A DNA stretch of 21,582 bases from the NCBI GenBank assembly GCA_002269645.1, contig NIVC01005203.1, positions 1 to 21,582 on the forward strand. Reading direction: 5' to 3'. The position numbers were made by a program, and so were the translations under genes. Below the pieces are notes generated by a model, which made no database searches, had not been told where the DNA came from, and was given only the letters and a program-made list of their open reading frames with translations. Positions 3,911 through 21,172 of the stretch are shown one piece after another (the first letter of the stretch is position 1; each line of letters opens with the position of its first letter). The DNA comes from Macrostomum lignano. Taxonomy: Eukaryota.

Positions 3911-4181
3911 TGTAGTAGGGCGAATTATGATACTGCCGCACTAGCACTGGCGAGATAGGCGGCAATGCAAATGTATAGGGAAAAATACACTGCGGAGATA
4001 TGAGCCCTATCTCTGTGCATTGGGGACGGCTAAGCACTGCAGAGATATGAGCTCTATCTCTGTGCATTGGGGACGGCTAAGCACTGCAGAGATATGAGCT
4101 CTATCTCTGTGCATTGGGGACGGCTAAGCACTGCAGAGATATGAGCTCTATCTCTGTGCATTGGGGACGGCTAAGCACTGC
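3911..4181 (+). repeat. Left terminal inverted repeat (271 bp)
   Basis: Reverse complement of 20671-20940 with 4 differences: terminal T vs A, a 1-nt indel in cgaat(t)atga, atgtat/cagg, and one substitution in a 47-mer. Confidence 0.93.
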
Positions 4182-4250
4182 AGAGATATGAGCTCTATCT
4201 CTGTGCATTGGGGACGGCTAAGCACTGCAGAGATATGAGCTCTATCTCTG
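3990..4250. repeat. 47-bp tandem array in the left end (5 full units + 26 bp)
   Basis: Unit ctgcagagatatgagctctatctctgtgcattggggacggctaagca starts at 3990, 4037, 4084, 4131, 4178 and 4225. Confidence 0.95.
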
Positions 4251-4484: not shown

Positions 4485-4579
4485 AGATGTTAATCTATGT
4501 AATTGGAAATAATGTTTGCGAAAGAGCCAATCACAGAGCCCGGAGTGGGATGGGTGGTTTGGGGTGGTTCGGTCGAGGG

Positions 4580-4588
4580 TATATAAGC
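4580..4588 (+). promoter_or_regulatory. TATA box (TATATAAGC), left-arm promoter
   Basis: Preceded by G-rich GGGTGG boxes (4543-4567), followed by an Inr-like TCAATT at 4613, and 112 bp upstream of the first ATG (4692). Confidence 0.6.
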
Positions 4589-4691
4589 CCCGAAATTGAC
4601 AAGGAAGAATTCTCAATTTTTCAAATCCAAAATTTCATCCGAAATTTTCCTCAGCTTTTAACTTTTGTGAGTTTTCAATTGCGAAAGGAAA

Positions 4692-5468
4692 ATGGACATC
4701 TGTGAAGGCTATAAGGCACAAGTCCAGGAGTTTGAAGGACAAAAATTTATCGCTATTCGCAAATTTTACCGACACGGCAGCACGGCAAGTCTGAAGCCAG
4801 GCGTCCCAGGATTCAACCTGAATGTTCACCAATGGAAGAAATTGAAGGAGGTGAAACGCTCACTTGTGATTTCTGCACGCAACAACGAGCCCAAGGTCGT
4901 GAAACTCGGCTTCGATAAGTTTGTGGAAGTCAAAGGCGGCATCATTTGGCTCAAACGGCTGCCGGAAGATTGCTGCGAGGAGTTTTTGAGACGAAACGCC
5001 GTACCACTGACTCCGCCGCTGTGGCAGAAGCTCTGGAAAATCGCCTCCTGGATCGACGGTCAGCTGGTGGCTCCCTTGAGGAACACAATGCAGTACGAGC
5101 TGGAGTCTGATGAGGAAGAGGAGGAAGAGGACAAGAAGCTCAAGTTGGAGGCTGACCAGGACACGAAGCCCATAATGGAGACTGATGAGGGCGGAGATCA
5201 TGCTGATGACGAGGACGTTAGCTCGCCCACAAGGCCGCGCATTGTGACTGAGCCAATCACATCCACACCGATACCTTCGGTTGATTCTGATGCTGGACTG
5301 CTTCCGCAGCGGGACACCAACCTTGAGGAAGATCCGGTGTGGTATCAGTTCAGGGCGCATGCAGCGGCTTCGACGGTGAGCAGCAGCAGCAGGAAGCGAA
5401 AGCTGCCATTTCAACTTCGTCGGCAGGACGCGATGAGGCTGCAGCCCAATGTTCGCTTTGATAACTGA
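4692..5468 (+). CDS. Tandem PC4/Sub1-like ssDNA-binding protein with acidic, disordered C-terminus (258 aa)
   Basis: Domain 1 (YKAQVQEFEGQKFIAIRKFY...LKPGVPGFNLNVHQWKKLKE) matches the PC4 pattern VSVRxFxGKxxIDIRExY...KPGxKGISLxxEQWxxL. A second degenerate copy follows (LGFDKFVEV...IWLKR...VPLTPPLWQKL...IDGQL), then a poly-Glu tract and an RKRK NLS-like motif. Confidence 0.8.
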   Translation: MDICEGYKAQVQEFEGQKFIAIRKFYRHGSTASLKPGVPGFNLNVHQWKKLKEVKRSLVISARNNEPKVVKLGFDKFVEVKGGIIWLKRLPEDCCEEFLRRNAVPLTPPLWQKLWKIASWIDGQLVAPLRNTMQYELESDEEEEEEDKKLKLEADQDTKPIMETDEGGDHADDEDVSSPTRPRIVTEPITSTPIPSVDSDAGLLPQRDTNLEEDPVWYQFRAHAAASTVSSSSRKRKLPFQLRRQDAMRLQPNVRFDN

Positions 5469-5717
5469 ACAGCTAGAATGCTTTGAATGCATTGGACTAA
5501 CTAAATTACTTTTAGCTTGCACATGATTATCCAGCCTGACGGCACTATGCTGTTTTTTATCTCTGCTATTTCTGAAATGCTGGTGTGCGAGTGTTTTAGT
5601 GTTCGTTTTTATGGATTGTTTGCTTTCGGAAAATACACCGACTGTTACGATGTTAGAGGTTTCAATCTGACAGTAATAAATTAATTTGCCACTCGTTTCT
5701 CTATCATTTAATTGGAA

Positions 5718-5723
5718 TATAAA
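5718..5723 (+). promoter_or_regulatory. Possible TATA box upstream of the integrase
   Basis: TATAAA about 65 bp before ATG 5789, just downstream of an AATAAA (5675-5680) that could terminate the PC4 transcript. The AT-rich context makes a chance occurrence possible. Confidence 0.3.
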
Positions 5724-5788
5724 TTTCTACTTAAGAAAAAATACTGTACAGCTAGAGCAGGTGGATAGGCACGTATCTTGATAAACCC

Positions 5789-6859
5789 ATGATGGAGAAA
5801 ATTTATTTGAAACCTGAGCAACCGGCTAGTTTTTCTTGTGCCTCAAAGTTGCTGCATGAAGTGAGGCAAAGAGGTGATCGAATATCTGCAAAGAGCATTG
5901 AGCAGTGGCTCAGCGAGCAGCCAGTGCACACTCTGCACAAGCCAGCTAGGAGGCGATATCCAAGGGCCCCAATCATAGTGCGCGCAATCGATGATCAGTG
6001 GGAACTTGACTTAGTGGAAATGATTCCATTCGCAAAGCATAATAAAGGCTACAAATATATTCTCACATGCATTGACGTGCTCTCAAAATGTGCTTGGGCC
6101 AAGGCACTGAAAAATAAATCTGCTGCAGAAGTGAAGTCAGCATTCGAGAGCATACTGAGAAGTTCAAAGCGCCAGCCACGCACAGTTCGCACAGATCAGG
6201 GGAAGGAATTTATCAACTCCACTTTCCGTCAATACTGCATTGACAGAGGGATTCTGGCTTTCCCAACTAACAGCGAGCAGAAGGCAGCTGTCATTGAGCG
6301 ATGGAATCGAACTCTGAAAAGTAGAATGTGGCGCTACTTCACCTACAAGAGCACACTGCACTGGCTTGATGTGCTGCCTAAGCTGGTAAAATCCTACAAC
6401 AATACCTACCACAGAAGCATCAAAATGGCACCCACTAGTGTCTGCAAAGAGAATGAATCTGAAGTGTGGATGAACCTGTACGATGGAAAAGCAGTCGAGA
6501 CTCTAGAAAAATTAAAGAAGCCTAAGTTCGCTGAAAACCAGTCAGTGAGAATTTCCAATGCTCCACGGATATTCAAAAAGGGATACAAAGCGAGCTGGAG
6601 TGAGGAAGTGTACACCGTGGTGAGCAGAGCCCCAAAACATTATCCCTACATGTACAAGATTAAAGACATGCGGGGGCAAGAGATTCGAGGACTCTTCCAT
6701 GAGCACGAGCTGCAGGCTGTCCCGGACTCACAGCGGCTGTATGTGATTGAGAAGATCCTGAAAACGGAGAAGCGGAAGGGAAAAATTCGCTATCTGGTGA
6801 AATGGGCGGGCTACGACTCGACTGGCTGGGTGGATGAAAAAGACTTAAGAAAGGTTTAG
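5789..6859 (+). CDS. INT: Polinton retroviral-type (rve/DDE) integrase with C-terminal chromodomain (356 aa)
   Basis: Catalytic D (WELDLVEM), D (VRTDQGKEF) and E (VIERWNRTLK). Chromodomain YVIEKIL...YLVKWAGY retains the three aromatic cage residues. Confidence 0.95.
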   Translation: MMEKIYLKPEQPASFSCASKLLHEVRQRGDRISAKSIEQWLSEQPVHTLHKPARRRYPRAPIIVRAIDDQWELDLVEMIPFAKHNKGYKYILTCIDVLSKCAWAKALKNKSAAEVKSAFESILRSSKRQPRTVRTDQGKEFINSTFRQYCIDRGILAFPTNSEQKAAVIERWNRTLKSRMWRYFTYKSTLHWLDVLPKLVKSYNNTYHRSIKMAPTSVCKENESEVWMNLYDGKAVETLEKLKKPKFAENQSVRISNAPRIFKKGYKASWSEEVYTVVSRAPKHYPYMYKIKDMRGQEIRGLFHEHELQAVPDSQRLYVIEKILKTEKRKGKIRYLVKWAGYDSTGWVDEKDLRKV

Positions 6860-6887
6860 CTTTGGCACAGCCCTCATCATGTAGTTT

Positions 6888-7706
6888 ATGATTATAATGC
6901 GAACTATTTTGATTAACAGTGAGCATGCTGAAGGTACTCCTAGTGACTTTAATTTTTACCTGCCTTCACCTATTTACTTGGATCGAAATGTGGACTATGA
7001 GGCAGGTCTGGCTGAAATCCATCTGCCTGCTGCATGGTTCAATGTTGACGAGCCTTACTGCTTCACTGTCTCAGATGGAAGAGAGCATGAGGCCCTGGTT
7101 CTTCAACCCGGACGCTTTGCTAGAGTGGAGGAGCTGGTGGAGCGCCTGAATGAGCTGCTGGCCAACTCTGATTCGCTGTTCTTTGATGCAATGAGTGACA
7201 GGGAGTCTGAGATGGAGGCTGATGAGTCCGGCCTGATGGGGCGTAGTGGCAACAGGGAATTTGGTATGAAGTTCGAAATCCGCAACTCACGAACTGTGGT
7301 GCACAACAACACTGCGAGAGCAGAGCTGTTTCTTCCATCTAGTAAAATTCTGCATTGGCTGGGATTTGGAAACCAGGCTGTGAAAATCCAGCCAGGGAGC
7401 CGCGTATCCGAGCATTGCATTGGCTGCCCGCGCACCAGCTTAATCAATGTGCACTGCAGTATCGTTGAGTCAACTAATTGCAACTGGAGCTCCTTGTTGA
7501 GAACAGTTGGAATGAAAGCTGGCATTGAATGGGGCAACTATCAAACAAAAATATTTAAGAAAACAATATTCTTCCCGATTCAACGAATCAGTCTTCTTCA
7601 CAGCATTCGAGTTCAGCTGCGGGACATCTATGGTTGCCCACTGATTGCACAGACTCACAGCCCTGTTCTGCTTACAGTTCAAATTCAGGAGAAACGCATT
7701 CAATGA
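6888..7706 (+). CDS. Minor capsid protein (penton, single jelly roll; Polinton PX) (272 aa)
   Basis: N-terminus SDFNFYLPSPIYL...YEAGLAEIHLPAAWFNV and C-terminus FFPI...SIRVQLRDIYGCPL fit the Polinton mCP pattern. Located between the integrase and MCP. Confidence 0.8.
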   Translation: MIIMRTILINSEHAEGTPSDFNFYLPSPIYLDRNVDYEAGLAEIHLPAAWFNVDEPYCFTVSDGREHEALVLQPGRFARVEELVERLNELLANSDSLFFDAMSDRESEMEADESGLMGRSGNREFGMKFEIRNSRTVVHNNTARAELFLPSSKILHWLGFGNQAVKIQPGSRVSEHCIGCPRTSLINVHCSIVESTNCNWSSLLRTVGMKAGIEWGNYQTKIFKKTIFFPIQRISLLHSIRVQLRDIYGCPLIAQTHSPVLLTVQIQEKRIQ

Positions 7707-8079
7707 ACTACCAGCAGCTAATCCAGCAATATTCGGGGTGAGGACAGGACACGAAAAGCCTGCACTCTATGGCTGTGGGAGCTTCCCAGGGATCATGACA
7801 TACCAGCCTCCGCCAGCGGCTATATCATCATCATCAGCCTCGACGCTTAGCAACGTCAGGCGCAAAAGAAATACTGAAGCAAGTCCGAAACGATTGAAGA
7901 AAAAGAAGGGCACCCGAAAGGCAACTGGTGGAAATCGCAGTAAGAGGTCGAGCAAGGCTAGTGGGAAAAAGCTTAAGAATAGGAAGACGAAAGCAAAGAA
8001 GAATAGAGCAGGCGGAGGAAAGCGAAAGCAAAAAGTCAGCAAGAAAACTGTGAAACGCGTGCTCGACTCTCTGTCATAG
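7703..8079 (+). CDS. Lys/Arg-rich core-like (pVII-like) protein, split by a -1 frameshift at G4 7735-7738
   Basis: ATG 7703 overlaps the mCP stop (ATGA). MNYQQLIQQYSG runs into the frame of ORF 7645-8079 if one G is added. Very basic C-terminal half; adenain-type site LYGC/G. Confidence 0.6.
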
Positions 8080-8081
8080 AC

Positions 8082-9365
8082 ATGGCTTACGGATTCAATC
8101 CCAGACTTGATTTATTTAAGACGCCCGTTCTACAAACCTGCATTGAAAAAGCTACTTATGTTGATATTCACCCAGTTAATTCCATTGTTGCAAACTCTCC
8201 CATTGAATTTGACTGCCACCAATCTGCCGATGAATATACAGATCTGCTTAATTCTTTTCTTTATATTCGCTGCCGCCTTGTGAGACTGGATGGGGGTTTG
8301 CTGAGGGAGGATGTTCGAGATGGAGATGGCATCATCACCGAGCGCAGAGACAGTGACGTGCACCCAGAAAATTTTGTTCTGTCTACAGCCTTCTCAGATG
8401 TAATTGTGAGCATTAACCAGCGAGTGGTGTCTGGTGGAGACCAGCTCTATCCCTACCATGCGTACTTCAAAGCACTAATGAGCTCATCCGATGCCCAGCA
8501 ACTAAAACTTTACCCTGCTGGCTTCCTGGAGCCGAACTCGGCAGCTGAAGAGCACACGGAGAGCCACAGGGAATCCCAATGGATGGAGTATGCGGGGCCG
8601 CTCTTCAGCGATGTTTTCCAGTGCCCAGTGTTTCTGCTAAGCAATCTGCACCTGCACATCAAACTGGTCCCCAGCGATGGGGCCTTTGCCATCAGAACCC
8701 CGAATGCAAACAACGCGGCATACCGAATGGAAATCTCTCACAGCATTCTGCATCTTCGCCGAGTCAAAGTGATGCCCCACATCAGCCTGGCCCATGAGCA
8801 GGGGCTGACAAACCAAAATGCACTGTATCCCATCGAGCGAACTGAAATGCAGAACTTCATCCTACCCCAGGGTATTCAGTCAAAAAACATTGAAGGATTC
8901 ACTCATGGAAAATTGCCGAAGTTCATCATGCTGGCCTTCGTGAGCCACCGAGCATTCAACGGTCATCATCACGCGAGCCCGTTACAGTTCCAGAGCTTCA
9001 ACCTTAGCCGATTGGCTCTAAAGAAAGGTGGGGAAACCGTGTGCCACGGCGCCTTCACACCTGAAAACAATTCCTTCGTAAGAGAATACTTGCACTACCT
9101 GAAAAGCTGTCAATCTGCAAGCCACACAAACTCGGTCCCGTGGATCCCCTACCAGCTCTTCTCCAACAACACCACGGTGTTTGCATTCGATCTCACACCC
9201 GAGGGAGCGGCTCTGTGGTACGGACAGAAGGAGGGCAACCTGCGGCTGGAGATTCGCTTCCAACAGGCTCTGAATGAAGCGGTGTCCCTGATTGCTATGT
9301 GCCTGTATGACTCGCTGATTGAGGTCACCAAGCACCGAGAGCTTTTGCTGGACTATTCCTCTTAA
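8082..9365 (+). CDS. MCP: Major capsid protein (double jelly roll; Polinton PY) (427 aa)
   Basis: LDLFKTPVLQTCIEKATYVDIHP...PIEF...YTDLLNSFLYI and GKLPKFIMLAFVSHRAFNG...PLQFQSFNL match Polinton MCP patterns. Confidence 0.92.
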   Translation: MAYGFNPRLDLFKTPVLQTCIEKATYVDIHPVNSIVANSPIEFDCHQSADEYTDLLNSFLYIRCRLVRLDGGLLREDVRDGDGIITERRDSDVHPENFVLSTAFSDVIVSINQRVVSGGDQLYPYHAYFKALMSSSDAQQLKLYPAGFLEPNSAAEEHTESHRESQWMEYAGPLFSDVFQCPVFLLSNLHLHIKLVPSDGAFAIRTPNANNAAYRMEISHSILHLRRVKVMPHISLAHEQGLTNQNALYPIERTEMQNFILPQGIQSKNIEGFTHGKLPKFIMLAFVSHRAFNGHHHASPLQFQSFNLSRLALKKGGETVCHGAFTPENNSFVREYLHYLKSCQSASHTNSVPWIPYQLFSNNTTVFAFDLTPEGAALWYGQKEGNLRLEIRFQQALNEAVSLIAMCLYDSLIEVTKHRELLLDYSS

Positions 9366-9370
9366 TTGAC

Positions 9371-9883
9371 ATGGATGCAATTCAACTACTTAATCTCGCC
9401 AGAAAATTTTTGCCTTACCAAAAATTTCTCATAGTTACTTTACATTTGCGCTATAAAAATTCTCTGCCCTTGAATGTAAAAAGAAAATTTAGATCATCAA
9501 TTTCCTTTGAAAACAAGTTTGTTTTTGTCCTACTTCAGCACAATGGCTCATTTGGTCACTGGGTGGTGTGCTATGTTGGGCAAGGAAATCGCATTGAGTT
9601 GTTCAACTCCCTCGGCTGGGAACCTGAAATTTTATCTTTGGTTTATAATTTGTTTCGAGAGATTAAAACAACTGGCTTTTGGCTCCGAAGCAATATAAAC
9701 AGAGTTCAATGTGCTAACTCTAATAAATGCGGAATGTTTTGCATCTATTTTGCTTATCAAAAGTTTCTGTTCAATCGGTCATTTGAGGGGATTTTGAAGC
9801 ATTTGCATGCTAATGAGAAAAATCATTTGAATGATAGAATCTTACAGAGGTTTGAAGCCAACTTAAGAAAAAGATGTCCGTGA
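9371..9883 (+). CDS. PRO: Adenain-like capsid maturation cysteine protease (170 aa)
   Basis: GHW (His), FNSLG (Asn at the usual Asp position), RVQ (oxyanion Gln) and KCG (Cys), immediately after MCP. Confidence 0.88.
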   Translation: MDAIQLLNLARKFLPYQKFLIVTLHLRYKNSLPLNVKRKFRSSISFENKFVFVLLQHNGSFGHWVVCYVGQGNRIELFNSLGWEPEILSLVYNLFREIKTTGFWLRSNINRVQCANSNKCGMFCIYFAYQKFLFNRSFEGILKHLHANEKNHLNDRILQRFEANLRKRCP

Positions 9884-10553
9884 TTTCTAATATTTATGCA
9901 TTAAACATGGGAGAAAAGCAAGTTTGCTACGATATCCGCCTCAGGCAGGGAAGCTGCATGATTGTCTGCGGGCCCACCAATGCAGGAAAAACAACCTTTG
10001 TCGAACACCTGATCCAGTACAGAGACGTCATGTTTGATGTGAAGCCTGGCAGAGTTCTGTGGTACTATGGGATCTCACAGGCAGGCCATGCAGAACTGAA
10101 CAGCCTAGGTGTGCAGCTGCGCCAGGGATTTCCCACCAACATCGAGGCAGCACTTAGGCCCAATGACCTGGTTGTTTTCGATGACTTAATAGAGGAAACT
10201 TCAAACTCTGCTTCAATGCGAAATTTTTTCACAGGAATCGCACATCACTTGCCGTGCTTTTTGGTGATGCTGACTCAGAATATATTTTTCAAGGGAAAAG
10301 AGTCGCGAACAATGAGCTTGAATGTAATGTACTTAGCTATCTTGAAAAACCCCGAGACCAGCTGCAGATTGCAGCACTGGGCAGGCAGTGCTTTACAGAG
10401 AAGCCCGGCTTTCTGCTGTCAGTGTTCAAGCACGTGACCGCGCAGGGCAGGGGAGCCTACCTGTTCCTAGACTTTCACCCATCAACTCCCGATGAGCTGC
10501 GAGTGCGGGCCAGAATTCTGCCCAACCAGCGACCCCATCTTGTATTTGCTTAA
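9874..10553 (+). CDS. A32/FtsK-like genome packaging ATPase, split by a -1 frameshift at C4 10350-10353
   Basis: Walker A GPTNAGKT, Walker B LVVFDD, and IAHH...LTQN. The conserved KNPRDxxQ motif is split between ORF 9874-10437 (…LKNP) and ORF 10254-10553 (RDQLQIAALGRQ…YLFLDF…RVRARILP). Confidence 0.92.
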
Positions 10554-10594
10554 GAAAGTGAAGCTTGTTTTTATCAGCTATTGTTTTCATCGCA

Positions 10595-10933
10595 ATGGAA
10601 GTGCTTGATTCATATGCAAGTCTTTTTGCGGTTCTTGCGTCACCTAAATATACCGTGCGCTTCAAGCGGCTGTTGATAAAAAATTGTCCAAAAGAAGTGC
10701 GTTATTTTCTTGTCGAGGCCTGCCATAATCTCTTACAAAACAATCTATCGTTTTCGCTCGATGAAAAAGCTGTTCTTGCAAAGTCAAAAGAGATAATTCG
10801 AAAAATTACTCACAAAAGAAGAAAGACAGACTTGTTGAAGGCTGGCTTCATCAAAATACTCCCGATTCTGCTTAAGCTGGTAAAGAAGAAGAAGCAAAAT
10901 GAACAAATTTTCAGAAATGGTTCTGATTCCTAA
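10595..10933 (+). CDS. Small basic conserved Polinton/adintovirus protein (112 aa from first ATG)
   Basis: KRLLIKNCPKEVRYFLVEACHNLLQNNL...EKAVLAKSKEIIRKI resembles the recurrent Polinton family pattern LIxxxxxxxxxxIxExxxNxLxGNxxL. The ORF track starts at TTG 10565. Confidence 0.65.
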   Translation: MEVLDSYASLFAVLASPKYTVRFKRLLIKNCPKEVRYFLVEACHNLLQNNLSFSLDEKAVLAKSKEIIRKITHKRRKTDLLKAGFIKILPILLKLVKKKKQNEQIFRNGSDS

Positions 10934-11591
10934 AGCAGAGTATGAGATGTTGATGCAGAATTTGAAGCCAAATGAGACTACCACTGAAGCTGACTTGAAG
11001 CAGGCTCAGAAGAAATGCGATGACATCTTGTATGCCGAGGATTGTCCAGAAGATGTGAAAACCGCCATGTACCAAAGTGCAATGCAAAGTTTGCTGGCCA
11101 AGCGCAAGCACGCTGGAAAAGAAGGAGCACGCAATACTGAAGCCAAGTTGATGAAAACAGAGACACCCCAGATAAGCACCTGGGAAGAGAAGATCAGCAA
11201 GTCGGTGCCACAGAAATTCAAAACCAGGGCTCGCAGTCTGTGGACGATCCTGTCCACCAATCCAGAGCTGATTCGAGTTTGTGAAAACGGGGAGGTGGAA
11301 ATCGCAGGCACGTCAATCCCTTCCTCAAACATACTGGACTTGATTCAGCACACAGTGAGGGATTCGCCATGTGAGCGTGAACCAGTTGGGTGGAACGAGT
11401 TCATCGATTTTCTGCAGCAGAAAAAGCTTAATGTTCCGCTTTCCGCTGTTGGTAAATCAGTTAAGAAGAAAATGGCAACCAGCAGAGGGGGTGAACTGGA
11501 GAAAGAACAGGAGAGTCTAGTCAAGGGGTACGGGAGCAACACAGCCTGGCTGAAATTGCCTGCCAGAAAAGTATATAAGAAGGTGGACTGA
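10899..11591 (+). CDS. Conserved Polinton/adintovirus protein of unknown function (230 aa)
   Basis: MVLIP N-terminus and the block VPQKFKTRARSL...ENGEVEIAG..IPSSNILDLI...PVGWNEFIDFL...NVPLSAVG are characteristic of a widespread Polinton family. Confidence 0.72.
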   Translation: MNKFSEMVLIPKAEYEMLMQNLKPNETTTEADLKQAQKKCDDILYAEDCPEDVKTAMYQSAMQSLLAKRKHAGKEGARNTEAKLMKTETPQISTWEEKISKSVPQKFKTRARSLWTILSTNPELIRVCENGEVEIAGTSIPSSNILDLIQHTVRDSPCEREPVGWNEFIDFLQQKKLNVPLSAVGKSVKKKMATSRGGELEKEQESLVKGYGSNTAWLKLPARKVYKKVD

Positions 11592-11620
11592 CTCCGAAAT
11601 TTTCGAAGGAAAGCTGCATC

Positions 11621-12041
11621 ATGAACTACATTGACTTCCAAGGATTCCGTGCAACAGCACAAGCAAAAAATTTGTTGTGAAGGAGTTGGCAGTTGTTCAA
11701 ATCAGAGCGGGGAGCTACCACATTGCTCACCATGTGTACGCACCTCCGTATCCATGGGAGAGAGTCTCACCTGACATGCGAGTTTACTACAGACAGCTAT
11801 CTAAGAGTCTGCACCAGTTTAAGTGGAATGATGGAACCCGTCCGTACATGGAACTGGCGGAAGACATTCTGAGCATTGCCAGTGGTCCGATCTGGTCAAA
11901 TGGGGAAAGGAAGTCGATTTTTCTGACTGAGCTGCTTGGAAGACAGGTTTATAACCTAGAAGATTTGGGAGCACCCTCGACTGAAGATTCAGATACTGGC
12001 TGTGCAGTGAGAAATTCGTTGCTGCACTACAGTTGGCTTAA
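11621..12041 (+). CDS. Degenerate DEDD exonuclease-like accessory protein (-1 frameshift at A6 11665-11670; 3' end uncertain, frame stays open to 12471)
   Basis: ATG 11621 gives MNYIDFQGFR…, joining KKFVVKELAV…APPYPW…LHQFKWNDG…GERKSIFL…VYNLEDLGAP…CAVRN. This resembles the DxQGF…FxxKELA family seen in Mavericks. Confidence 0.6.
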
Positions 12042-12139
12042 GCCAAAGTTCTGCATCAACTTAAGAAGCGAGCAGTGTCCGTGGCACACGAGCAGTAAAG
12101 TTGGCAGAAGCAGATTTGGTGAAGAAGTTGACGATCGAA

Positions 12140-12712
12140 ATGAGCCCACCAGCTACAGCCCTAAGAGTGACCAATCTGGTTGGCGGAGTAGATCTGAGAC
12201 TGGATGGTGGCAGGGGCGCTCAGCTGCCTCTACGGGAACTGGCTCTCAGCATGGCTCATGTGATCTACCGGCCCGTCTGGCCCCGGGTGCTCATCAAGCG
12301 GATGCGGATTCCCAGAGTGACTCTCCTACTCTACCCTACTGGGCAACTGAGCATCTGCGGTGCCAAGACCCACGCAGACGCCAAAAGGGCTGCCCGTCGC
12401 TTCGTGGCTATGCTGCATCGGAGAGTGCCGGCTCAACTGCTGCCTCATCAAACAATTTGTGTTCGAATTAAAACTATTACTGCTCATGGACAGCTCCCAG
12501 TTCATTCCGCACTTTCCTTATTAATGTTAAAATCAATTATCCCAAACGCCGAATATGAACCAGAATCCTTTTCTGCTTTAATTTTCAATTTAAACTTTTG
12601 TAAATGTCTGCTTTTTCACAGCGGCTCTTTTGTTCTCAGTGGAGCTCGGTCCTTGAATCAGTTGCATACCGATAGCATGCGTCTACTCAATGTAGTTCTT
12701 TCCATTGAATAA
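12140..12712 (+). CDS. TBP: Divergent TATA-box-binding protein (TBP)-like protein with both repeats (first ATG 12140; frame open from 12065)
   Basis: Repeat 1: VTNLV...IYRPVWPRVLIKRMRIPRVTLLLYPTGQLSICGAKTHADAKRAARRF. Repeat 2: AEYEPESFSALIF...CLLFHSGSFVLSGARS. These align with canonical TBP NIV...[37 protein letters not shown]...AARKY and SYEPELFPGLIY...LLIFVSGKVVLTGAK. Confidence 0.9.
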   Translation: MSPPATALRVTNLVGGVDLRLDGGRGAQLPLRELALSMAHVIYRPVWPRVLIKRMRIPRVTLLLYPTGQLSICGAKTHADAKRAARRFVAMLHRRVPAQLLPHQTICVRIKTITAHGQLPVHSALSLLMLKSIIPNAEYEPESFSALIFNLNFCKCLLFHSGSFVLSGARSLNQLHTDSMRLLNVVLSIE

Positions 12713-12719
12713 AAATAAA
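12708..12719 (+). terminator. Tandem polyadenylation signals AATAAA-AATAAA overlapping the TBP stop
   Basis: AATAAA at 12708-12713 and 12714-12719, at the end of the + strand gene block. Confidence 0.55.
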
Positions 12720-13291
12720 GTCAAGTCAAGCAATTTGCCGCAAATATTTCAATGATTAGTGAAAAGTGAATAAAAGGATAAACTTGTATTCTTTACATTC
12801 ATTTTCCCAGGCAGACAGCTATGGAACACTTCAAAAACGTATTTAGCCCATCACCAAAAGTATCGCAAAACGCATATCAAATCCGAAAGTAAACAATACT
12901 ACCATCGTTATAACAAACGATGTGCACCGAGAGAAGAGAAATAGAAAAGTGATAGAGAAAATATGATTAAAACGCTGATTGAATTTACAGGAACAATTTA
13001 TGTCAGATAAAAACCAAAAACACATTTTAAACAAGTAGTACACAAAGCAAACAAAAATGAATTAATATTGTATGAGCGCACTTGCCACAGCTTTATAAAA
13101 AGTAAAACTTAAATTGATATCAATATTTCACGCCGCAAAAACAAATTGACAGCTAAATCTAGCGCAATTAGCCAAGCATACAAATTTGTAAAAGTTACTA
13201 CATGCAAGTCACTACATTTAAAACAGAATTTGGCAATTTAAACAACTCTAAAAGCAAGAAAAAGTACTAAACAGTCTGTTAAACACCCGCA

Positions 13292-16200
13292 CTAGACCAG
13301 TCGGATGCGCTTCAGCTGATCGTGGGATGCGGGCGTCAGCGCATAGTGTCCGTAGGGCAGGCTTCGATTACTGCTAAGCCACACTCGCTTATCCTCCCAC
13401 ACCGATAGGCTTCTTTTCTCCATGACCGACGTGAAGATTTCGTGTTTCTTGGAAACAATCGCTGTCATGGCAACCATCTGCTCTTGCTTGGACTCGAACG
13501 CGTCGACATAGTTCGCATGCGAAATTTGCTGTCTTACTACTGACTGCTTCACGCCTTTGGCAGTTTTCTTGATCTTTGCACTCGAATTCTCGGCAGGGAG
13601 AAACGAATAAAGTTTTGGACGCAAAAGAATCCACTCCTGGTAAATTCCACCAGCAGATTCATCTTTAACGCAGCCCAGCTTTCCTTTTAACTCTTCAGAG
13701 AAATGCGGATGGTCTCGAGAATAGTTGGATGTGTCAAGTATTTTTTCCTCTCTAAGCTTCGGGATTACCTCCGATGTTAAATCATGATTCTTGAAAGCTA
13801 GAAAAAATGAGTCAGTATCACCTCCGCAAAGCATCATGTCTCTGGAACCGTCTGAATGACAGAACAGCGGTCGGAGCCTGTCATATAGTAGGCTGTACAT
13901 GGCCATCTTAGAGAGATCGAGAACTGCCTGGCCAACGAAAATGGCCTTGTCAAGCGTGACTTTATCTTTTTTGAGCTGAAAAATGCTCAACGACTCATTG
14001 ATAATCGAGAATGCGGCACAGTTTGGTCGAGAGGCGCAAGTTTCTGCTTGAGTCTGGTTAGTGCAAATTCGAACATCGCATCTTTTTCGAACGTTCTCCA
14101 TAGTTTTTCCAAAGAGAGAATTGTTTTTCAATTTGTAAAAATCCTTAGCAAACTCGGAAGTTGCCAAAGCTCTTTTTTCATTGTTGCTGGCAATGTACGG
14201 CGCGAAAATATTTTCCTGCTTGAACGAAATCATTTTTTTGACGCACTTGATCCGCATTCCGTGTTGCAGGTAAAATCTTAAAACGGTGCTGTGAACTACG
14301 TAAGAATCCTTGTCGGTACAGGTGAGTAGAAGCTTCTCCGTTGCTTGAAACTTAGCTTCAGCATTGCCAGTTCGCTGTTCAGCAATCTCTTTCCATAGTT
14401 CGGCCATGTACGGCGAGAATTGATCTGGCTGTGGTTTTGATTTTTCAGGTGCAAACGGTAACTCCTGAGTCGAATCGTGAATCTCAGCTGGGTATTCTAG
14501 ATCGAGTTGAACAAGGTAGGCGATCTCGGCTTCTGGATTGAGTGACAGAAACCGATTGGAGTCCCAGAACTGGATTTCCTGTTCCGGTACCCACCTGAAT
14601 TCCCTGCATGGAAGCGGAAGCGACAGGGCAAAGCCATACAAGTTGTTCATATCGATCGGCATGAGGCTTACACTCTCTTGCTGATCATCATAACCTGGCA
14701 AGCTAGGATTATTACCTTTGACGCAATGCACATTAATGAAGGACATGCCTCCTCGTATTCCCTTCTCAAACAGATGATACATGTCAGCATCAGTCAGCTG
14801 CTCTAGAACCACTCCAGTCGACTTTAGAGCTGAGTCGTAAGACAAACCAGGAGTAGTAAAGTAGTGTACCGGATCCAATCCGTCCTCTTTCAGACTGGCC
14901 TGTCGGAATGTCTCGAAAATGTCAGCCAGCTGCCTTACATCCATTTCAAGATAGGCGAGCATATAATCCTTCAAACTTTTGCATTGAAATGCCGCCCATG
15001 CCGCTCTTGCTCTATTGTAGTCGTCGTCGGAAATTCCCCTATCGGAAAGTCGATTAAAAAAAGCATCTTTAGGCGGCAAAACCGACTGCTCGAGAATCTC
15101 AAATCCTGTGAGGTAATCATATGGGAAAATCCCTTTTTTTCGAAGTAGCTCTCTTGAAAGATGTGGTCTTGACTCAAGCATTTGCATTGTCAGCTTGCAT
15201 TCAGCTTCGGGAAGATTAGCAAACAAATTGGACAAACTTCCCTTCAAAAAGCAGAGCGAGTCGATGAACTGAATTGTAAACATGATTGGCACAACTTTTC
15301 CGTTCTTTACGTAACTTGCAACAGGGAATTCCGCCCTTAGTGACAAGTATCGCTCGGATGATTGCGGAACAACACTAAGTTTCCAATTTTTCATGCTCCC
15401 AAGCGCAGTGGAAAGTAGAAGATGAAGGTCGTAGCCGCCTAAGTTGTGAAAAACCAGGGGCAGAAACCGGCGTCGGAGCTGTGCTCGCAGGTTGCATTCT
15501 TGACATGCACCTTTGTACTGTCCATTTAAATGATCGTGGTCAAAATGTTTATCTGTAGAACTTTTAAAGTTCTTCTTGCAGTAGTGACATACCTCAGCAG
15601 AATTGAAATCATCCATGACGGTCGCGGATGATCGGTCAGCCGGCTGGTGGCTATGCTTCTGGTTCCAGTGAAATATATCCTGAGCCAGGCTTTCAAGAGA
15701 TTTGAGAAAACCAAGGATACACTCATCAGGGTCCGCATTGCAAAAGACCTTGTACATGTCTCCTTCTGGCCTAAGCGGAGGTCCTGTCATGCCTTCACGA
15801 GGCACTGCAAGAAAAGCTGCTGCACATGGTTCATGCTTTGAGATCAGGTTAGCAGGGTCTGTGTTCGCTCGCAAAATGGCTTCCAGGTCGGCATAGGCAA
15901 CGAATGGTGGACTGACAGTGTTTTGACAGTTTCGGAACTTTATTTCATTCTGTCCTGGAACTGGAAGCGTTTCTTTGACAGGATTTTCTGCAGTAATGCT
16001 GCATTCGTTCCTGTGCTCTTGAAGCCTCTCGTTGCTATAAAATGATGTTAAACATTTCGTGCACCACTTCCTCATGGCGGGACCATTACGACTGTTCATT
16101 AACCTGTCAAAATTAGTAATTGCACACCAGTGCTCCGATCCGTAGCTGTCTTTAACTAGCAAAAGCATGAGGTGTCTTCGGTCATCTGACTCATGCTTGC

Positions 16201-16938
16201 GGCGACGGAGAAGAGTCACACTGCCCTGCTGCCAAGAGAACGCAGAAATGCAAATTCCTGGATTGTTAGACTCGACGCGATCGATATCAGCGACACTCAC
16301 TGGCATGGAGATTTCTGCAAAGTCCAGCTCACGCAACCATTCATCGTAAGAGGATATTCTGTTGGGCGATTTCTGAACTTTCGGATCGGCGCTGTGCAGT
16401 GCAGCGAGACAGGCGTACAGGAAACAGTCTTTGCCTGTGCTCGGTGGATTGATAACAGCCTTTTTGTTCTTCAAACTGGCAGGAAGATTGAATCTAACGG
16501 CTCTGCCCTGGCGAAATCGAATTGGATTGTACCTGGCAAGGTTGATGTCTAGAAAATTAATTTGTTTAATTGTCCAGCCACTGCCGTTCGTATTAATCAT
16601 ACTACAGATCCTCTCCAACTCCTGCTCCTGCTCAATCAACCAGTTGTTTAAACGGCCTGCTTCACCACCTAGGTCTAGGGCCTGCATTTTACAGCTTATC
16701 CATCTGTCCTCTTCGGCAAGCATCTCCCCATCTCTTATTCGGACCATTCGAATATTCGCCTTTAGCTGAACTTTGTAATGATGTCTTGAAATTCTTTGCT
16801 GAACTGCCTCAATAATTTTGTCTCCAGCTTGGACAAAAAATTCTGACGGAAGCGTGTCTGGGTGACTCGATCTGAGCCTCAGTATTTCCAGTGATTGATC
16901 ATAGGCTTGGGCAACTCTGCTGAAGCTGACTGTTGAAC
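13292..16938 (-). CDS. pPolB: Protein-primed family B DNA polymerase with vOTU, C2H2-like Zn finger and Endo VII insertion (1151-aa ORF from 16747; frame open to 16951; likely last exon starts at 16938)
   Basis: Exo I YADLEA, Exo II FHNLGGYDLHL, Exo III YLEMDV. Pol motifs DMNNLYG, KLKNNSLFGK, GGDTDS and RPKLY. vOTU DCF…HW; zinc finger CTKC…H…C; Endo VII CHYC…DHDH…CQECN. Confidence 0.96.
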
Positions 16939-17153
16939 CTGGTTTGTGGTTTTAGGATAATATTTTTGTTTTTTGCTGCCAAGATACTAAACTAAACGTC
17001 TGTACCCAAGCATACATGTACAACCCTACCGGTATAAAGTCTTTTATCTCCCCTTCTCCCATTCTTTGGACTAAAATTTTAGACTGCATAATATACATCG
17101 CATTGATAAGAAAATTTTTAAGTAAGTTGAAAAGGATAAATAAAGGCACTTAC
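16939..17153 (-). other. Predicted 215-bp spliceosomal intron upstream of the polymerase exon
   Basis: Donor CAAG|GTAAGT (17154/17153) and acceptor CCAG|GT (16939/16938), AT-rich. Both ends are phase 1, giving CAA G|GT TCA in frame. Confidence 0.6.
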
Positions 17154-17173
17154 CTTGGTGTGCATCAGTCACC

Positions 17174-17365
17174 GACTCGCTGTTGGCTGCTGACTCGCTG
17201 CTGGCTGCTGACTCGCTGCTGGCTGCTGACTCGCTGCTGGCTGCTGACTCGCTGCTGGCTGCTGACTCGCTGCTGGCTGCTGACTCGCTGCTGGCTGCCG
17301 ACTCGCTGCTGGCTGCCGACTCGCTGCTGGCTGCCGACTCGCTGCTGGCTGCTGACTCGCTGCTG
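17174..17365. repeat. 18-bp tandem repeat, about 10.7 copies (SESAAS on the - strand)
   Basis: Unit gactcgctgctggctgct. Confidence 0.93.
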
Positions 17366-17384
17366 ACGTCATGGTCCACCCAAG

Positions 17385-17580
17385 GGTGGTCATACTCGAT
17401 CCACGAGTGGTCATCCTCCATCCACGAGTGGCCATTCTCCATCCATGAGTGGTCATTCTCCATCCATGAGTGGTCATTCTCCATCCATGAGTGGTCATTC
17501 TCCATCCATGAGTGGTCATTCTCCATCCATGATGGTCATCTCATCCATGAGTGGTCATTCTCCTGCTCCATCCAGGAGTG
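17385..17580. repeat. 21-bp tandem repeat, about 8 copies (MENDHSW on the - strand)
   Basis: Unit ccatccatgagtggtcattct; one copy (about 17527-17544) lacks three single bases. Confidence 0.9.
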
Positions 17581-18512
17581 CTCAACCATAGAAAAGGCAA
17601 GCAGTTAAAAGCTGACAGTGTTTACTGGCTGCAACTGAGTGTCATAAGCAACTGGGAGTGAATATTGGAAATCTTTTTCGTAAGTCTTTATTGCTGCAAT
17701 ACTGGTACAATATCCACACTTACAAGCTAGTAGATGCTGGTTATATTTTTTTGGTTCTCCCTTAAGCTAGCTCTCTGCATGCATATTCTATTGATCCCTA
17801 TTCGTAAAAGTTCGTTTCTATTTGCCTCCTACGCAGACTCAATCGGTAAAAAATGCAAAATGAAGCCAATAGTTAATTAACAAACCAATCACCGAGTGGA
17901 AAAATGCTGACATTATATATATATTTTTTAAAAAATTATCGAATTCACATGGTGCAATCATAGTCAATAAACAATGCATGGAACAATGAATTACAAATAC
18001 AGACGAGAGTTTAGAAGCAGAAATATAGCTGAAAAGTTCAATAATTAAAGAATGAGGAAACACCGCGTCAAAGCAGTAGAAAGAAAATTATACCTAATCA
18101 ATCGCACCAAGCATACGAAACCATCACCAATTTATTGAAAGTATGTTATGTTGATTTTAATTTGTTAAATTCAACTGTATAATGTTTCACCTACTTTTCA
18201 AATAATTTTTTTTACCTCGGATACCAAAAAATATTGGTTGCCACTACGAGCTACGAGCTTTTTTTAAAACTAATTTGGAAATGAAAACTGAAAACTTATA
18301 AGCAAGATTCCTAGAAGCGAATACAGAGTTATGAGATGATCAAATCATTAATTAATGTACCTACTTTCAACTTTAAAAAGCTAGTTGAAATAAAGTTTTA
18401 GCAATAATTGCAATAAATGGGTAGATTTCTCACTCCACACAGAAAGCAAAAAAGTACAAAAATTGCTTAGTCACAGCGGCACAATTCTAATACGATTTTC
18501 GAAAATCGTTAC

Positions 18513-20157
18513 CTCGTACCCAGCCCCGCCGACAGGAGGCAGAAAGAAGGCAACTCCAGCTGGCACGGGTGGAGTTTCGGATTGAGAAGCTGGAATTGTA
18601 GAGGCTGCAGCTGGGCGGCTGGAGCAGCTGGGGCAGCCAGAGCAGCTGGGCGGCTGGAGCAGCTGGGGCGGCCAGAGCAGCTGGGGCGGCCAGAGCAGCT
18701 GGGGCGGCCAGAGCAGCTGGGGCGGCTGGAGCAGCTGGGGGGCCAGAGCAGCTGGGGCGGCTGGAGCAGCTGGGCGGCCAGAGCAGCTGGGGCGGCCAGA
18801 GCAGCTGGGGCGGCCAGAGCAGCTGGGGCGGCCAGAGCAGCTGGGGCGGCCAGAGCAGCTGGGGCGGCCAGAGCAGCTGGGGCGGCCAGAGCAGCTGGGG
18901 CGGCAGAGCAGCTGGGGCGGCCAGAGCAGCTGGGGCGGCCAGAGCAGCTGGGGCGGCAGAGCAGCTGGGGCGGCCAGAGCAGCTGGGCGGCCAGAGCAGC
19001 TGGGGCGGCCAGAGCAGCTGGGGCGGCCAGAGCAGCTGGGGCGGCCAGAGCAGCTGGGGCGGCCAGAGCAGCTGGGGCGGCCAGAGCAGCTGGGGCGGCC
19101 AGAGCAGCTGGGGCGGCCAGAGCAGCTGGGGCGGCCAGAGCAGCTGGGGCGGCCAGAGCAGCTGGGCGGCCAGAGCAGCTGGGGCGGCCAGAGCAGCTGG
19201 GGCGGCCAGAGCAGCTGGGCGGCCAGAGCAGCTGGGGCGGCCAGAGCAGCTGGGGCGGCCAGAGCAGCTGGGGCGGCCAGAGCAGCTGGGGCGGCCAGAG
19301 CAGCTGGGCGGCCAGAGCAGCTGGGGCGGCCAGAGCAGCTGGGGCGGCCAGAGCAGCTGGGGCGGCCAGAGCAGCTGGGGGGCCAGAGCAGCTGGGGCGG
19401 CCAGAGCAGCTGGGGCGGCCAGAGCAGCTGGGGCGGCTGGAGCTGCAGGTGCACAATTGCATATGCGACTCATTGTCGCTGCCCTCCTCTTCTAGATTTC
19501 CATTTCGTGTCGTCTTCATTAGATGAAGTTGTTTTCCAGCAATCACCGGAACCGAAGAGACAGGTTGCTGCTGCTGCTGACGACCCTTCTCCTTGAATTC
19601 CCTGAGGAACTGATCCAGGACATCTTCCTCTATGAAGTTTATGACAGCAGCAGCCTCGACTCCAGCAGCCTCGACTCCAGCAGCCTCGACTCCAGCGGCC
19701 TCAACTCCAGCAGCCTCGACTCCAGCAGCCTCGACTCCAGCAGCCTCGACTCCAGCAGCCTCGACTCCAGCAGCCTCGACTCCAGCAGCCTCGACTCCAG
19801 CAGACAGCTCAACTTCAAATTCTGCAGCTGCTGAAGACCCGCTTGGCCTATCCTCTTCAATGTAGAGTCAATTACTTGACTCAAGTGAGCTGATAGCAGA
19901 CTCCTGCTGGCTCCTTTTTTCTGCTGGATCTTCTTTTCTCTCTCGTTGCTCTTTTTGATGGCGCGGATTACTTTCCAGCGGTTACTTTCTTGCTTTTTCT
20001 TGTCATCGCTGACGATCCTGTGTCCTCGATGATATGCTGGAATTTTTCCCTCCTGCAGAGCTTCGACGGTGCCGCACTGGTCGCATGCCAACCAGCATGA
20101 GACCAGACAGTTCTCATTCTCGTGGTGTCTTGGGGACACGCCTCCAAGCAGGCACAC
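18513..20157 (-). CDS. Putative low-complexity protein/exon of the right arm (frameshifted; boundaries uncertain)
   Basis: Non-repetitive protein-like segments flank the arrays: a Cys/His-rich start, a basic coil, LYIEEDRPSG, VINFIEEDVLDQFLREFKEKGR and STIPASQSETPPVPAG…GGAGYE. Ends at a possible donor GAG|GTAACG (18513/18512). Confidence 0.4.
18607..19447. repeat. 18-bp GC-rich tandem array, about 47 copies (PAALAA/PAAPAA on the - strand if units are uniform)
   Basis: Unit gccagagcagctggggcg; about 11 copies are one base short, causing the frame switches seen in three overlapping ORFs. Confidence 0.93.
19648..19803. repeat. 15-bp tandem repeat, about 10 copies (GVEAA on the - strand)
   Basis: Unit cagcagcctcgactc. 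Confidence 0.93.
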
Positions 20158-20315
20158 TTCGGCAGCTTATACAGACCTCATAGAGGTCTCTATGACAACT
20201 TTTAAAATTTTCATTTTTGAAAGAGAAAGAGTTGTTTTTTAGAAGTAGTAAGGTTTTTAAAAATCATTTTATACAATTTGTTTTTGTCTATTTGTTTATT
20301 TGTACTTGCGTGGCT

Positions 20316-20324
20316 GCTTATATA
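20316..20324 (-). promoter_or_regulatory. TATA box (TATATAAGC), right-arm promoter
   Basis: gcttatata on + equals TATATAAGC on -, identical to 4580-4588 and at a similar distance from the end (616 vs 669 bp). Confidence 0.55.
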
Positions 20325-20661: not shown

Positions 20662-20670
20662 TCCATCTCC

Positions 20671-20940
20671 GCAGTGCTTAGCCGTCCCCAATGCACAGAG
20701 ATAGAGCTCATATCTCTGCAGTGCTTAGCCGTCCCCAATGCACAGAGATAGAGCTCATATCTCTGCAGTGCTTAGCCGTCCCCAATGTACAGAGATAGAG
20801 CTCATATCTCTGCAGTGCTTAGCCGTCCCCAATGCACAGAGATAGGGCTCATATCTCCGCAGTGTATTTTTCCCTGTACATTTGCATTGCCGCCTATCTC
20901 GCCAGTGCTAGTGCGGCAGTATCATATTCGCCCTACTACT
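20671..20940 (-). repeat. Right terminal inverted repeat (270 bp) containing four 47-bp units (20675-20862)
   Basis: Ends in CCCTACTACT at 20940, the canonical Polinton-type 3' end. Confidence 0.93.
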
Positions 20941-21172
20941 CCTGTCAATGAGACGTCATGGCAGATGTCAGCGAAACGTGTGTTCTCAAATCTCTTCTTC
21001 ACTTTGTGCAAGTTGACTGTCACTAGAATGCGCACAGCATCTGCATACACTTTGGACGTCATTAATTTAGAGAAACGGTGACTACATATTTGAGTTTAGG
21101 GGCCATATGCTTACTAAAAGATCTGAACGCACATAAAAATTTGAAGTTTTTTACACACTATATATCTACTCC

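Follow-up and report, generated by a model that had tools for sequence, protein, structure and literature searches.

A divergent TBP and recurrent inner boxes point to a possible early-to-late promoter switch in Macrostomum lignano Polintons

Polintons/Mavericks (adintoviruses) are described as sharing terminal inverted repeats (TIRs) that start with AGTAGT, a pfam03175-type DNA polymerase B (PolB), an rve integrase, an adenain protease, a packaging ATPase and likely capsid genes (Starrett et al. 2021, PMC8502044), and in the portion of that account available to us a "TBP" label occurs nowhere but in the Fig. 5 legend (MELD viruses and elements related to them), and neither PC4 nor promoters are mentioned. 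Beyond this figure label, our literature search found no paper describing a Polinton TBP with an inner-box system, nor a described late promoter for animal Polintons/Mavericks. In herpesviruses, KSHV ORF24 is a 752-aa multidomain mimic that acts in a six-protein complex, keeps the four phenylalanines and Pro191 of TBP, has lost the glutamates that contact TFIIB and makes direct contact with Pol II (PMC12529657, in the sections available). Among large dsDNA viruses with a TBP, almost all also encode TFIIB, and the acidic stirrup is often lost (Ravarani et al. 2020, PMC7221094); polintons are not mentioned in the available part of that study.

The window analysed here, 21,582 nt of a Macrostomum lignano contig (NIVC01005203.1), holds a Polinton/Maverick of 17,030 bp that starts at 3911 and ends at 20940, a length within 15-20 kb. 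Animal Polintons/Mavericks are without an RNA polymerase. The left TIR (3911..4250, +) carries 47-bp subrepeats and the right TIR (20665..20940, -) terminates in CCCTACTACT at 20940, the ends being AGT-type and the cores (3926-4187 and 20665-20926) matching at 99% over 262 bp; the element opens with a T at 3911, a position at which sister copies carry an A in their right ends. This copy is without a 6-bp target-site duplication, its flanks (GAGGTC vs CCTGTC) agreeing at 3 of 6 bases, which may reflect assembly chimerism or recombination. For comparison we used seven subfamilies of this element (A-G) and two further Polinton families of the same genome (H and I).

Both a protein-primed PolB (PF03175; open frame of 1219 aa, 13292..16951, -) and an rve integrase with a chromodomain (Pfam; 5789..6859, +) are encoded, together with an adenovirus-type (C5) cysteine protease, i.e., adenain (9371..9883, +; Peptidase_C5 above cut-off), and a packaging-type P-loop ATPase (9907..10553, +; weak Pox_A32 match, E=0.011, in a sister copy). 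A preliminary description had called the element polymerase-less, which is right for RNA polymerase and wrong for DNA polymerase. From size and position, we take 6888..7706 (+) to be a likely minor capsid gene and 8082..9365 (+; 427 aa) the likely major capsid gene; neither candidate (double/single jelly-roll) had a match in Pfam, PHROG, NCBIfam or PDB sequences. The + block also holds a small basic protein gene (7703..8079), two conserved ORFs of 112 and 230 aa (10595..11591) with counterparts in families H and I, and a conserved "IDFQGF" gene (11621..12471) that lies directly upstream of, and overlaps, the TBP gene in families A-H and for which Pfam, PHROG and NCBIfam gave no match and PDB none of meaning; tandem AATAAA hexamers (12708..12719, +) end the block as a putative shared poly(A) site. 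Frames are broken in this copy near 7735 (basic protein) and 10350 (ATPase), both open in sister subfamilies, and near 11645 (IDFQGF). The right-arm gene (18487..20214, -), with a Cys/His-rich N-terminus, an acidic stretch and long repeats, is frameshifted here; of 24 further copies examined, 23 have it as an open frame with the same start. Integrase scans returned five distant loci, none with TBP or PC4 matches. The PC4 stretch is present in 19 of 24 listed runs that we guess to be RNA, always as contigs; the contigs of four runs across 4470-13300 and of four across 16300-18550 are continuous, with neither splice joints nor information on starts, and are no evidence either way. Splicing of PolB to the transcript of the right arm is conjectural. 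An idea of GATAA promoters was dropped after a single match on the PolB strand.

The preliminary description had proposed that the element's TBP and PC4 may act as a pair, with identical 9-mers pointing inward from the two arms, outside the TIR homology, as promoters, or may serve as decoys. Count and alignment bear out the boxes themselves: TATATAAGC occurs exactly twice, at 4580..4588 (+), 112 nt before the PC4 ATG, and at 20316..20324 (-), about 110 nt before the right-arm gene, against a chance expectation of 0.06 (two copies reached in 1 of 100 shuffles, a post hoc value), and it lies outside the TIR homology because in a local alignment of the two sub-terminal regions the isolated 9-mer alone matches there. 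TATATAAG within the twin boxes is a canonical TATA box. A CCAAT box (4527..4531, +) stands upstream of the left TATA, followed by GGGTGG boxes, a host-type arrangement of putative promoter function, and six host H3 regions have the same CCAAT+TATA layout at -87 to -98. In build the twin boxes resemble the promoters of host histone genes; they look like early promoters of host type and are likely read by host TBP. Joint action of TBP and PC4 on them appears improbable to us: identical arm 9-mers in this element would suit it, but the boxes are canonical and host-like, and although arm TATA boxes are kept in 7/7 subfamilies, left and right 9-mers are identical in only 2/7 (for three subfamilies the two arms were taken from different copies).

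The element-specific motif is a separate inner box, (C/T)TTAAGAA, overlooked in the preliminary description and found upstream of 8 of the 10 inner genes. TTAAGAA occurs in 5481-12720 eight times in sense and never in antisense orientation (expected 0.83; reached in 0/200 shuffles) and 7-9 times in each of the six other subfamilies, and a pattern-free scan returned the motif as top 7-mer, in 6 of 10 upstream windows, a value reached by 1 in 1000 random sets. CTTAAGAA stands on the + strand at 5730..5737 (non-coding, 62 nt before the integrase start), 6844..6851 (within the integrase end, as TTA-AGA codons), 7972..7979 (110 nt before the likely major capsid gene), 9862..9869 (45 nt before the ATPase start), 10549..10556 (overlapping the ATPase stop codon) and 12060..12067 (80 nt before the TBP ATG; retained in 30/30 near-identical copies), with TTTAAGAA at 7554..7561 (+), 149 nt before the basic-protein start. 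A hybrid of TATA-type and inner-type, TATATAAGAA (11572..11581, +), lies 47-49 nt before the IDFQGF gene and is retained in 28/30 near-identical copies; here the third TATATAAG of the element, at 11572, overlaps TATAAGAA. The protease gene and ORF230 have no box and one subfamily has none before the integrase; overall, boxes occupy 55 of 70 gene-by-subfamily slots, counts that are not independent because the subfamilies are relatives.

The boxes lie in non-coding DNA, on a stop codon or in different codon frames, and TTA-AGA codons make up 18 of 113 Leu-Arg pairs (2.5 expected). Where estimable, integrase dS is 1.5-2.9, i.e., the box outlasts saturated synonymous divergence. Its density is 1.1 per kb per strand in the + block vs 0.08 in host loci; it is found in 0/17 upstream regions of host H3, and TAAGAA is missing from the - strand between 12721 and 20400, the PolB side. 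The distance to the ATG (minimum 39 nt, median 58) fits a TATA-like position near -30, but no peak resembling an initiator was found +28 to +32 past the boxes, which counts against the promoter reading. A signal at the RNA level (3'-end, splicing or re-initiation) in place of a promoter would agree with several boxes being <=20 nt from the upstream gene's stop codon, but the integrase box sits in a spacer about 260 nt past the stop codon of PC4, the boxes of the capsid and TBP genes fall within reading frames upstream of them, the nearest upstream AWTAAA is 55-2160 nt off without pattern and no AG acceptor is kept behind the boxes across subfamilies (judged by eye), so we regard this reading as highly improbable.

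The A-G box includes TAAG, the baculovirus-type late core. This favors a reading in which the inner box is a real late promoter with another reader (host TBP/TFIID plus an element activator, e.g., the right-arm protein, or a helper virus polymerase), the element TBP having a different job such as soaking up TFIIB, Mot1 or NC2 and damping host transcription. Bare TAAG, however, is without strand bias (21 vs 28) and was rejected as a baculovirus-type signal, whereas TAAGAA is biased (9 vs 0); the signal resides in the 8-mer, and the 39-nt minimum spacing in A-G suits a TATA-like site better than a start-site motif. A LEF-8 search of this genome, run without a positive control, was blank. Taking these points with those from the protein below, we think another reader unlikely, though a serious contender.

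The TBP gene (12140..12712, +; PF00352 E=7.9e-25, two repeats) encodes a 190-aa core only and closes the + block that the PC4-like gene (PF02229 E=5.5e-8) opens, in agreement with the preliminary description. Its model (pLDDT 90.5; TM about 0.8 to solved TBPs) predicts the two-lobed saddle of the TBP family, and a median dN/dS of 0.20 over 21 pairs indicates purifying selection. All 14 element-type TBPs keep E186/E188 (yeast numbering; the acidic TFIIB-binding stirrup), have lost Pro191 and are changed at F116, V122, T124, Q158, N159, V161 and V203. F190, F207 and N69 are kept in the element TBP, while F116 is replaced by Tyr, N159 by Thr and P191 by Ser/Thr/Asn, and F99 aligns to Pro (a gapless alignment that led us to drop an A100P/F99W reading of the N-lobe); the canonical TATA-binding set of four intercalating Phe, two Asn and Pro191 is thus incomplete. 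The changes at F99 and F116 suggest that the element TBP may bind DNA weakly, a point for another reader of the box, and TRF2-type cellular proteins bind DNA weakly. Against this, a mere decoy needs no invariant DNA-face substitutions, and here they are invariant across 14 sequences with identity down to about 31-38%. Pro191 reportedly keeps bases other than T out of box position 1, V203 is close to position 2 and wild-type TBP tolerates G at position 6 (PMC1636458, available part); CTTAAGAA departs from TATA at positions 1 and 2, those tied to Pro191 and V203. A plain TATA target, as the TBP-PC4 pair would have, leaves this altered DNA face unexplained.

TFIIB (PF00382) gave 15 matches on 7 contigs of the genome, none at identified element loci, where a very divergent TFIIB could be missed among the unnamed ORFs. 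Judging from the conserved stirrup, the element TBP probably docks host TFIIB, and it probably redirects host Pol II, as the preliminary description had suggested it may; fold, selection and TFIIB-contact residues mark a real, conserved TBP. The twin TATATAAGC boxes as its target and the pairing with PC4 are the parts left unsupported, while a decoy use may hold. In a quick tree, element TBPs separate from 61 other rows including host TBP and TRF2 (SH-aLRT 93; long branches). No relatives turned up among viral contigs when the capsid, the TBP and the IDFQGF gene served as queries, a metagenome scan gave seven weak TBP matches (24-33%), none adjoined by the queried element genes, and a phage collection yielded haloarchaeal virus TBPs only (26-28%).

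Families H and I likewise encode TBP-like proteins and have inner boxes of their own, so that within this one animal genome each of the three Polinton families examined has a TBP. The inner box of H is TATAAGAA, of [CT]ATAAGAA-type, and that of I, which has a different TBP-like protein, is TATAAATA (6 sense vs about 0.1 expected, in 2/2 copies). Since wild-type TBP accepts G at position 6, host TBP could read the H and I boxes, which again favors another reader. The family I protein shares the C-lobe changes T159, T161, N191 and K203 and is paired with the canonical TATAAATA, so these changes alone cannot explain C-T at positions 1-2, and the independent TBP/box contrasts number only two. This pairing, and the overlap of TATATAAG and TATAAGAA in the hybrid box, would fit an element TBP of relaxed specificity that reads no private code but binds both box classes, and either boosts every promoter of the element or closes those of the arms by occupancy. 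We hold that to be very improbable, as the inner box has sharp limits (AA follows TAAG 8-11 times in sense vs 0-2 in antisense per A-G copy) and each family is without the other family's box.

PC4 and TBP co-occur in both A-G and H although identity is 35-37% and the gene layout has been rearranged, which speaks for a pair. No PC4 is demonstrable in family I (a PC4-like reading of one ORF was unsupported, with hhalign at 1.5% and no Pfam match), which has a TBP-like gene all the same. In family H, the TATA is within the TIR and stands directly before PC4 on one side of the element and before PolB on the opposite side, placing PC4 in the promoter class of PolB; in addition, the TBP gene lies behind inner-type boxes, hence TBP would be made after the arm genes. 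The PC4-like protein (4692..5468, +) has a predicted tandem PC4/PUR fold at aa 1-131 and an acidic/basic tail. Superposition of its first repeat with PC4 gives an rmsd of 1.1 A over 64 aa, and the ssDNA-binding fold of PC4/Sub1 is predicted, but the fold begins at residue 2, leaving no N-terminal acidic/lysine-rich regulatory region, which in cellular PC4 serves coactivation. From this model, the protein is most likely a single-stranded DNA-binding protein (SSB) for strand-displacement replication and not a partner of TBP.

We therefore lean towards a simple early-to-late switch in which host TBP fires the arm promoters and the element TBP reads the inner box. Host TBP on the ordinary arm TATA boxes would yield the early proteins (the PC4-like SSB and the Cys-rich protein of the right arm, joined in family H by the DNA polymerase), and the hybrid TATATAAGAA box would prime the unit holding TBP. 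The element TBP would then read the inner CTTAAGAA boxes, bring in host TFIIB and Pol II and switch on the integrase, likely capsid, ATPase and its own gene, in nested late transcripts that would stop at the putative poly(A) site past the TBP gene. More tentatively, and with doubt outweighing confidence, we postulate a one-protein, "sigma-like" Pol II switch in animal Polintons: a bare TBP, its DNA face retuned, would work on host TFIIB and read a late box that differs between families (CTTAAGAA for A-G, [CT]ATAAGAA-type for H, TATAAATA for I), giving co-resident families separate codes and letting TBP level gate the virion genes of integrated copies. An 8-bp box and one 190-aa protein are simple enough for a gel shift and a minimal reporter, and the box classes allow Polinton genes without a name to be assigned to an early or a late class.

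Compared with known systems, the PC4-like protein differs from PC4/Sub1 in having two predicted repeats per chain and a conserved acidic/basic C-terminal tail; its first repeat is superposable on PC4 (cf. phage T5 PC4 homologue, PDB 4bg7), and the whole model best matches Pur-alpha (Z 10.3, rmsd 4.0, 117 aligned). Cellular TBP and TRF2/TBPL1, both present in the host genome, share the fold of the element TBP, which is about 26% identical to host TBP and without its N-terminal extension. Relative to the adintovirus account (PMC8502044, as far as available), TBP occurs here in all three families examined, with matching promoter boxes. TBPs of large dsDNA viruses, matched by the element TBP in a BFVD fold search, are likewise virus-encoded, two-lobed and of diverged surface (PMC7221094, available part), whereas here the stirrup is invariant and no element TFIIB was found. 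There is a likeness to beta/gamma-herpesvirus late transcription (KSHV ORF24 vTBP on TATTWAA; PMC12529657, available part): no own RNA polymerase, host-type early promoters and, for late genes, a TBP-like factor of the virus that acts at a short box similar to TATA but non-canonical, here proposed from sequence. Unlike ORF24, the Polinton TBP is a bare 190-aa core of clear TBP sequence similarity in which the glutamates persist and Pro191 and F99 are gone; the six viral activators and the Pol II-binding N-terminal domain of the herpesvirus vPIC have no counterpart in it, and the relation is one of functional analogy and not of membership. If true, the Polinton system would be a natural altered-specificity TBP and would need far fewer parts than the complex of six proteins in herpesviruses or the pairing of TBP with TFIIB in giant viruses.

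The window holds a single Polinton/Maverick element of 17,030 bp (3911-20940 of contig G000:C5203 in the 764-Mb assembly), with a TIR core of 262 bp at 99% identity; its flanks at 3905-3910 and 20941-20946 do not form a perfect target-site duplication. Its plus-strand block encodes, in order, a PC4-like protein, integrase, a likely minor capsid protein, a basic protein, a likely major capsid protein, protease, ATPase, two unnamed ORFs, the IDFQGF gene (11621-12471, +) and TBP, and its minus-strand block a Cys-rich/acidic gene and DNA polymerase B (PolB). The two capsid labels are our assumption from size and gene order, and database searches gave no confirming match for them. Four genes of this copy carry frameshifts, and the same genes are open in sister copies. 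The element is abundant, with at least 152 TBP and at least 150 PC4 matches (150 candidates scored per search) that fall in tiers from 100% down to about 35-38% identity; for comparison we used example copies from subfamilies A-G (seven, all related), from family H, whose layout is rearranged, and from the distant family I. Short contigs from public sequencing and metagenome collections also carry relatives of each of the three element TBP types (sequences P0002-P0004, P0009, P0014, P0162-P0168), and the element families are thus not confined to this assembly. A MITE-like inverted repeat, perfect over 34 bp and spaced by 37 bp, lies in the left host flank (2336-2440), the element sits between host minisatellites of 28-bp and 18-bp units (2436-2724 and 21136-21582), and the right flank recurs on another contig (L052). 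The PolB frame has no ATG at its start, and upstream of it (16952-17610, minus strand) lies a repeat-rich frame with a GT-AAGT donor-like site, possibly a 5' exon.

Lining up the gene starts brought out a box, (C/T)TTAAGAA, before the inner genes, and as this pattern had been picked by eye, pattern-free counts were added. TTAAGAA occurs within 5481-12720 eight times in sense and never in antisense orientation (0.83 expected from shuffles, 0 of 200 of which reached eight) and 7-9 times in each of subfamilies B-G; family H has only two (32/200 shuffles) and seven of [ACT]TAAGAA (0/200). The inner box was the top word in upstream windows of A, E, F and H in a pattern-free scan, and only 1 of 1000 random window sets matched its count. 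Of 70 gene-by-subfamily slots, 55 hold the box, which precedes 8 of 10 genes at 39-149 nt (median 58) and is absent in this survey before protease and ORF230, and before integrase in D. Bare TAAG has no strand bias, and TAAGAA is absent from the PolB strand. Its sites include a spacer, a stop codon and different reading frames; among 113 Leu-Arg pairs, 18 are written TTA-AGA where 2.5 would be expected (the sites are homologous, hence not independent), despite near-saturated integrase synonymous sites; the inner box is therefore constrained as DNA. An RNA-level signal seems to us a very improbable reading of the box. The IDFQGF-TBP unit is headed by a hybrid, TATATAAGAA at 11572, in 28 of 30 near-identical copies, and TBP's own inner box is present in all 30. 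The IDFQGF frame (about 278-293 aa in sister copies) overlaps the TBP gene by about 110 codons in a different frame in families A-H.

The preliminary description had placed twin TATA 9-mers at 4580 (+) and 20324 (-), and both are there (two found against 0.06 expected; 1/100 shuffles), outside the TIR homology. A TATA-type box lies 72-112 nt upstream of PC4 in 7/7 subfamilies and also precedes the right-arm gene in 7/7 (GATATAAG in two), the full 9-mer being identical between arms in only 2/7; in C, F and G the left and right arm stem from different copies. CCAAT and GGGTGG boxes precede the left TATA box in the window. Among 17 distinct host histone H3 upstream regions, CCAAT plus TATA at -87 to -98 occurs in six, one further region has a TATA-like match at -154, and none contains TTAAGAA. 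The TATA box of family H lies inside the TIR, directly upstream of PC4 (3/3 copies) and PolB (the one copy read); the TIR (L049/L050, L142/L143) is long enough to include it, so that identical promoters face inward to PolB and PC4. We infer that the twin boxes are ordinary early promoters read by the host.

The TBP and PC4 homologues are genuine, with Pfam and PDB matches. A protein 99% identical to this TBP is catalogued in NCBI/UniRef under the flatworm Macrostomum lignano. The TBP model is predicted with a pLDDT of 90.5 and a TM of about 0.8 to solved TBPs, and median dN/dS is 0.20 (21 pairs). We compared 14 element-type TBPs with host TBP (yeast numbering): each of them keeps N69, V71, L114, E186, E188, F190 and F207, and each replaces F116 with Y, V122 with S/T, T124 with C, Q158 with K, N159 with T, V161 with T/S, P191 with S/T/N and V203 with K; F99 is opposite Pro in 10, the alignment being ambiguous in four. 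According to excerpts of PMC1636458, Pro191 blocks any base but T at box position 1, V203 sits close to position 2, and wild-type TBP tolerates G at positions 3 and 6. Parts of PMC7221094 connect TFIIB binding with the two glutamates and state that a TFIIB gene accompanies TBP in almost all viruses that have one; the assembly has 15 TFIIB-family matches, none of them at an element locus. Since the glutamates are kept, DNA-contact residues are changed and element loci have no TFIIB match, the element TBP looks suited to host TFIIB on an altered DNA sequence. Relaxed specificity, with this TBP binding both box classes, seems decidedly unlikely. In a quick tree the element TBPs separate from the other 61 rows, which include host TBP and TRF2 (SH-aLRT 93; long branches). 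The host TBP core and the TRF2-like paralogue (L085, L090) occur on three contigs each, with intronless cores.

Family I provides a contrast. Its TBP-like frame was detected in 6/6 copies with a profile built in this analysis (E 5e-8 to 9e-7) and by hhalign (77%, E 2e-5), fell just below the Pfam cut-off in one of two tested, had TBP as top Atlas matches with low recognition, and shows dN 0.14 against dS 2.2. Its inner genes carry no TAAGAA; they carry TATAAATA, six in sense and none in antisense orientation against about 0.1 expected (2/2 copies), and its early-looking genes carry GGGTATATAAG. All three families have two box classes and the inner box varies with TBP type, in just two independent contrasts. 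The family I TBP has the C-lobe changes too, yet its box is canonical, so only N-lobe differences track G at position 6, which counts against the TBP/inner-box model. A different reader for the inner box, with the element TBP as a decoy, is an alternative that we doubt without dismissing it. The family I loci (L126:765-9825, L128, L130, L132, L136 and L138, on G000 contigs C4, C807, C976, C2246, C384 and C416) carry integrase, a likely capsid gene (26% to the window's), protease, ATPase, a Fic-domain gene and the TBP-like frame, which lacks an in-frame ATG at its start. As PolB was not matched in six 20-kb stretches, family I may be non-autonomous, or may have a PolB that has diverged too far.

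The structure prediction for the PC4-like protein (pLDDT 87.2) has residues 1-131 folded as two PC4-type repeats within a single chain; repeat 1 superposes on PC4 at 1.1 A, and Pur-alpha is the best match to the whole predicted domain (Z 10.3, rmsd 4.0, 117 aligned). The protein lacks the regulatory segment found at the N-terminus of cellular PC4. Its tail (5320-5460), D-P-V/L-W-Y-x-F-R-A followed by KRK and LRRQ, is kept across subfamilies, and the middle region has diverged. PC4 and PolB share one promoter class in family H, and the T5 phage homologue is titled a replication factor in PDB 4bg7. An SSB role is more likely than a joint action with TBP, and family I has its TBP-like frame without a demonstrable PC4. 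A TBP-PC4 pair acting on the arm boxes, as first proposed, is unlikely, even with both homologues and both boxes in place; the observation held, and the interpretation is partly supported and shifts to the inner box.

We lean towards an early-to-late switch, built on observed boxes, conservation and residues and on predicted folds, with host TBP on arm and hybrid boxes and element TBP on inner boxes. Host TBP would start transcription from the arm promoters and from the hybrid box; element TBP would build up, bind CTTAAGAA as its candidate inner box and bring in host TFIIB and Pol II; integrase, the likely capsid, ATPase and TBP itself would then be driven by element TBP, and nested RNAs from the inner boxes would end at an AATAAA pair (12708-12719).

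Searches of open full-text literature yielded no paper on a Polinton TBP together with its promoter; in the text and legends of Starrett 2021 (PMC8502044), "TBP" is named in the Fig. 5 legend only, and it is absent from one supplement. KSHV ORF24 with TATTWAA (PMC12529657) offers a functional precedent.
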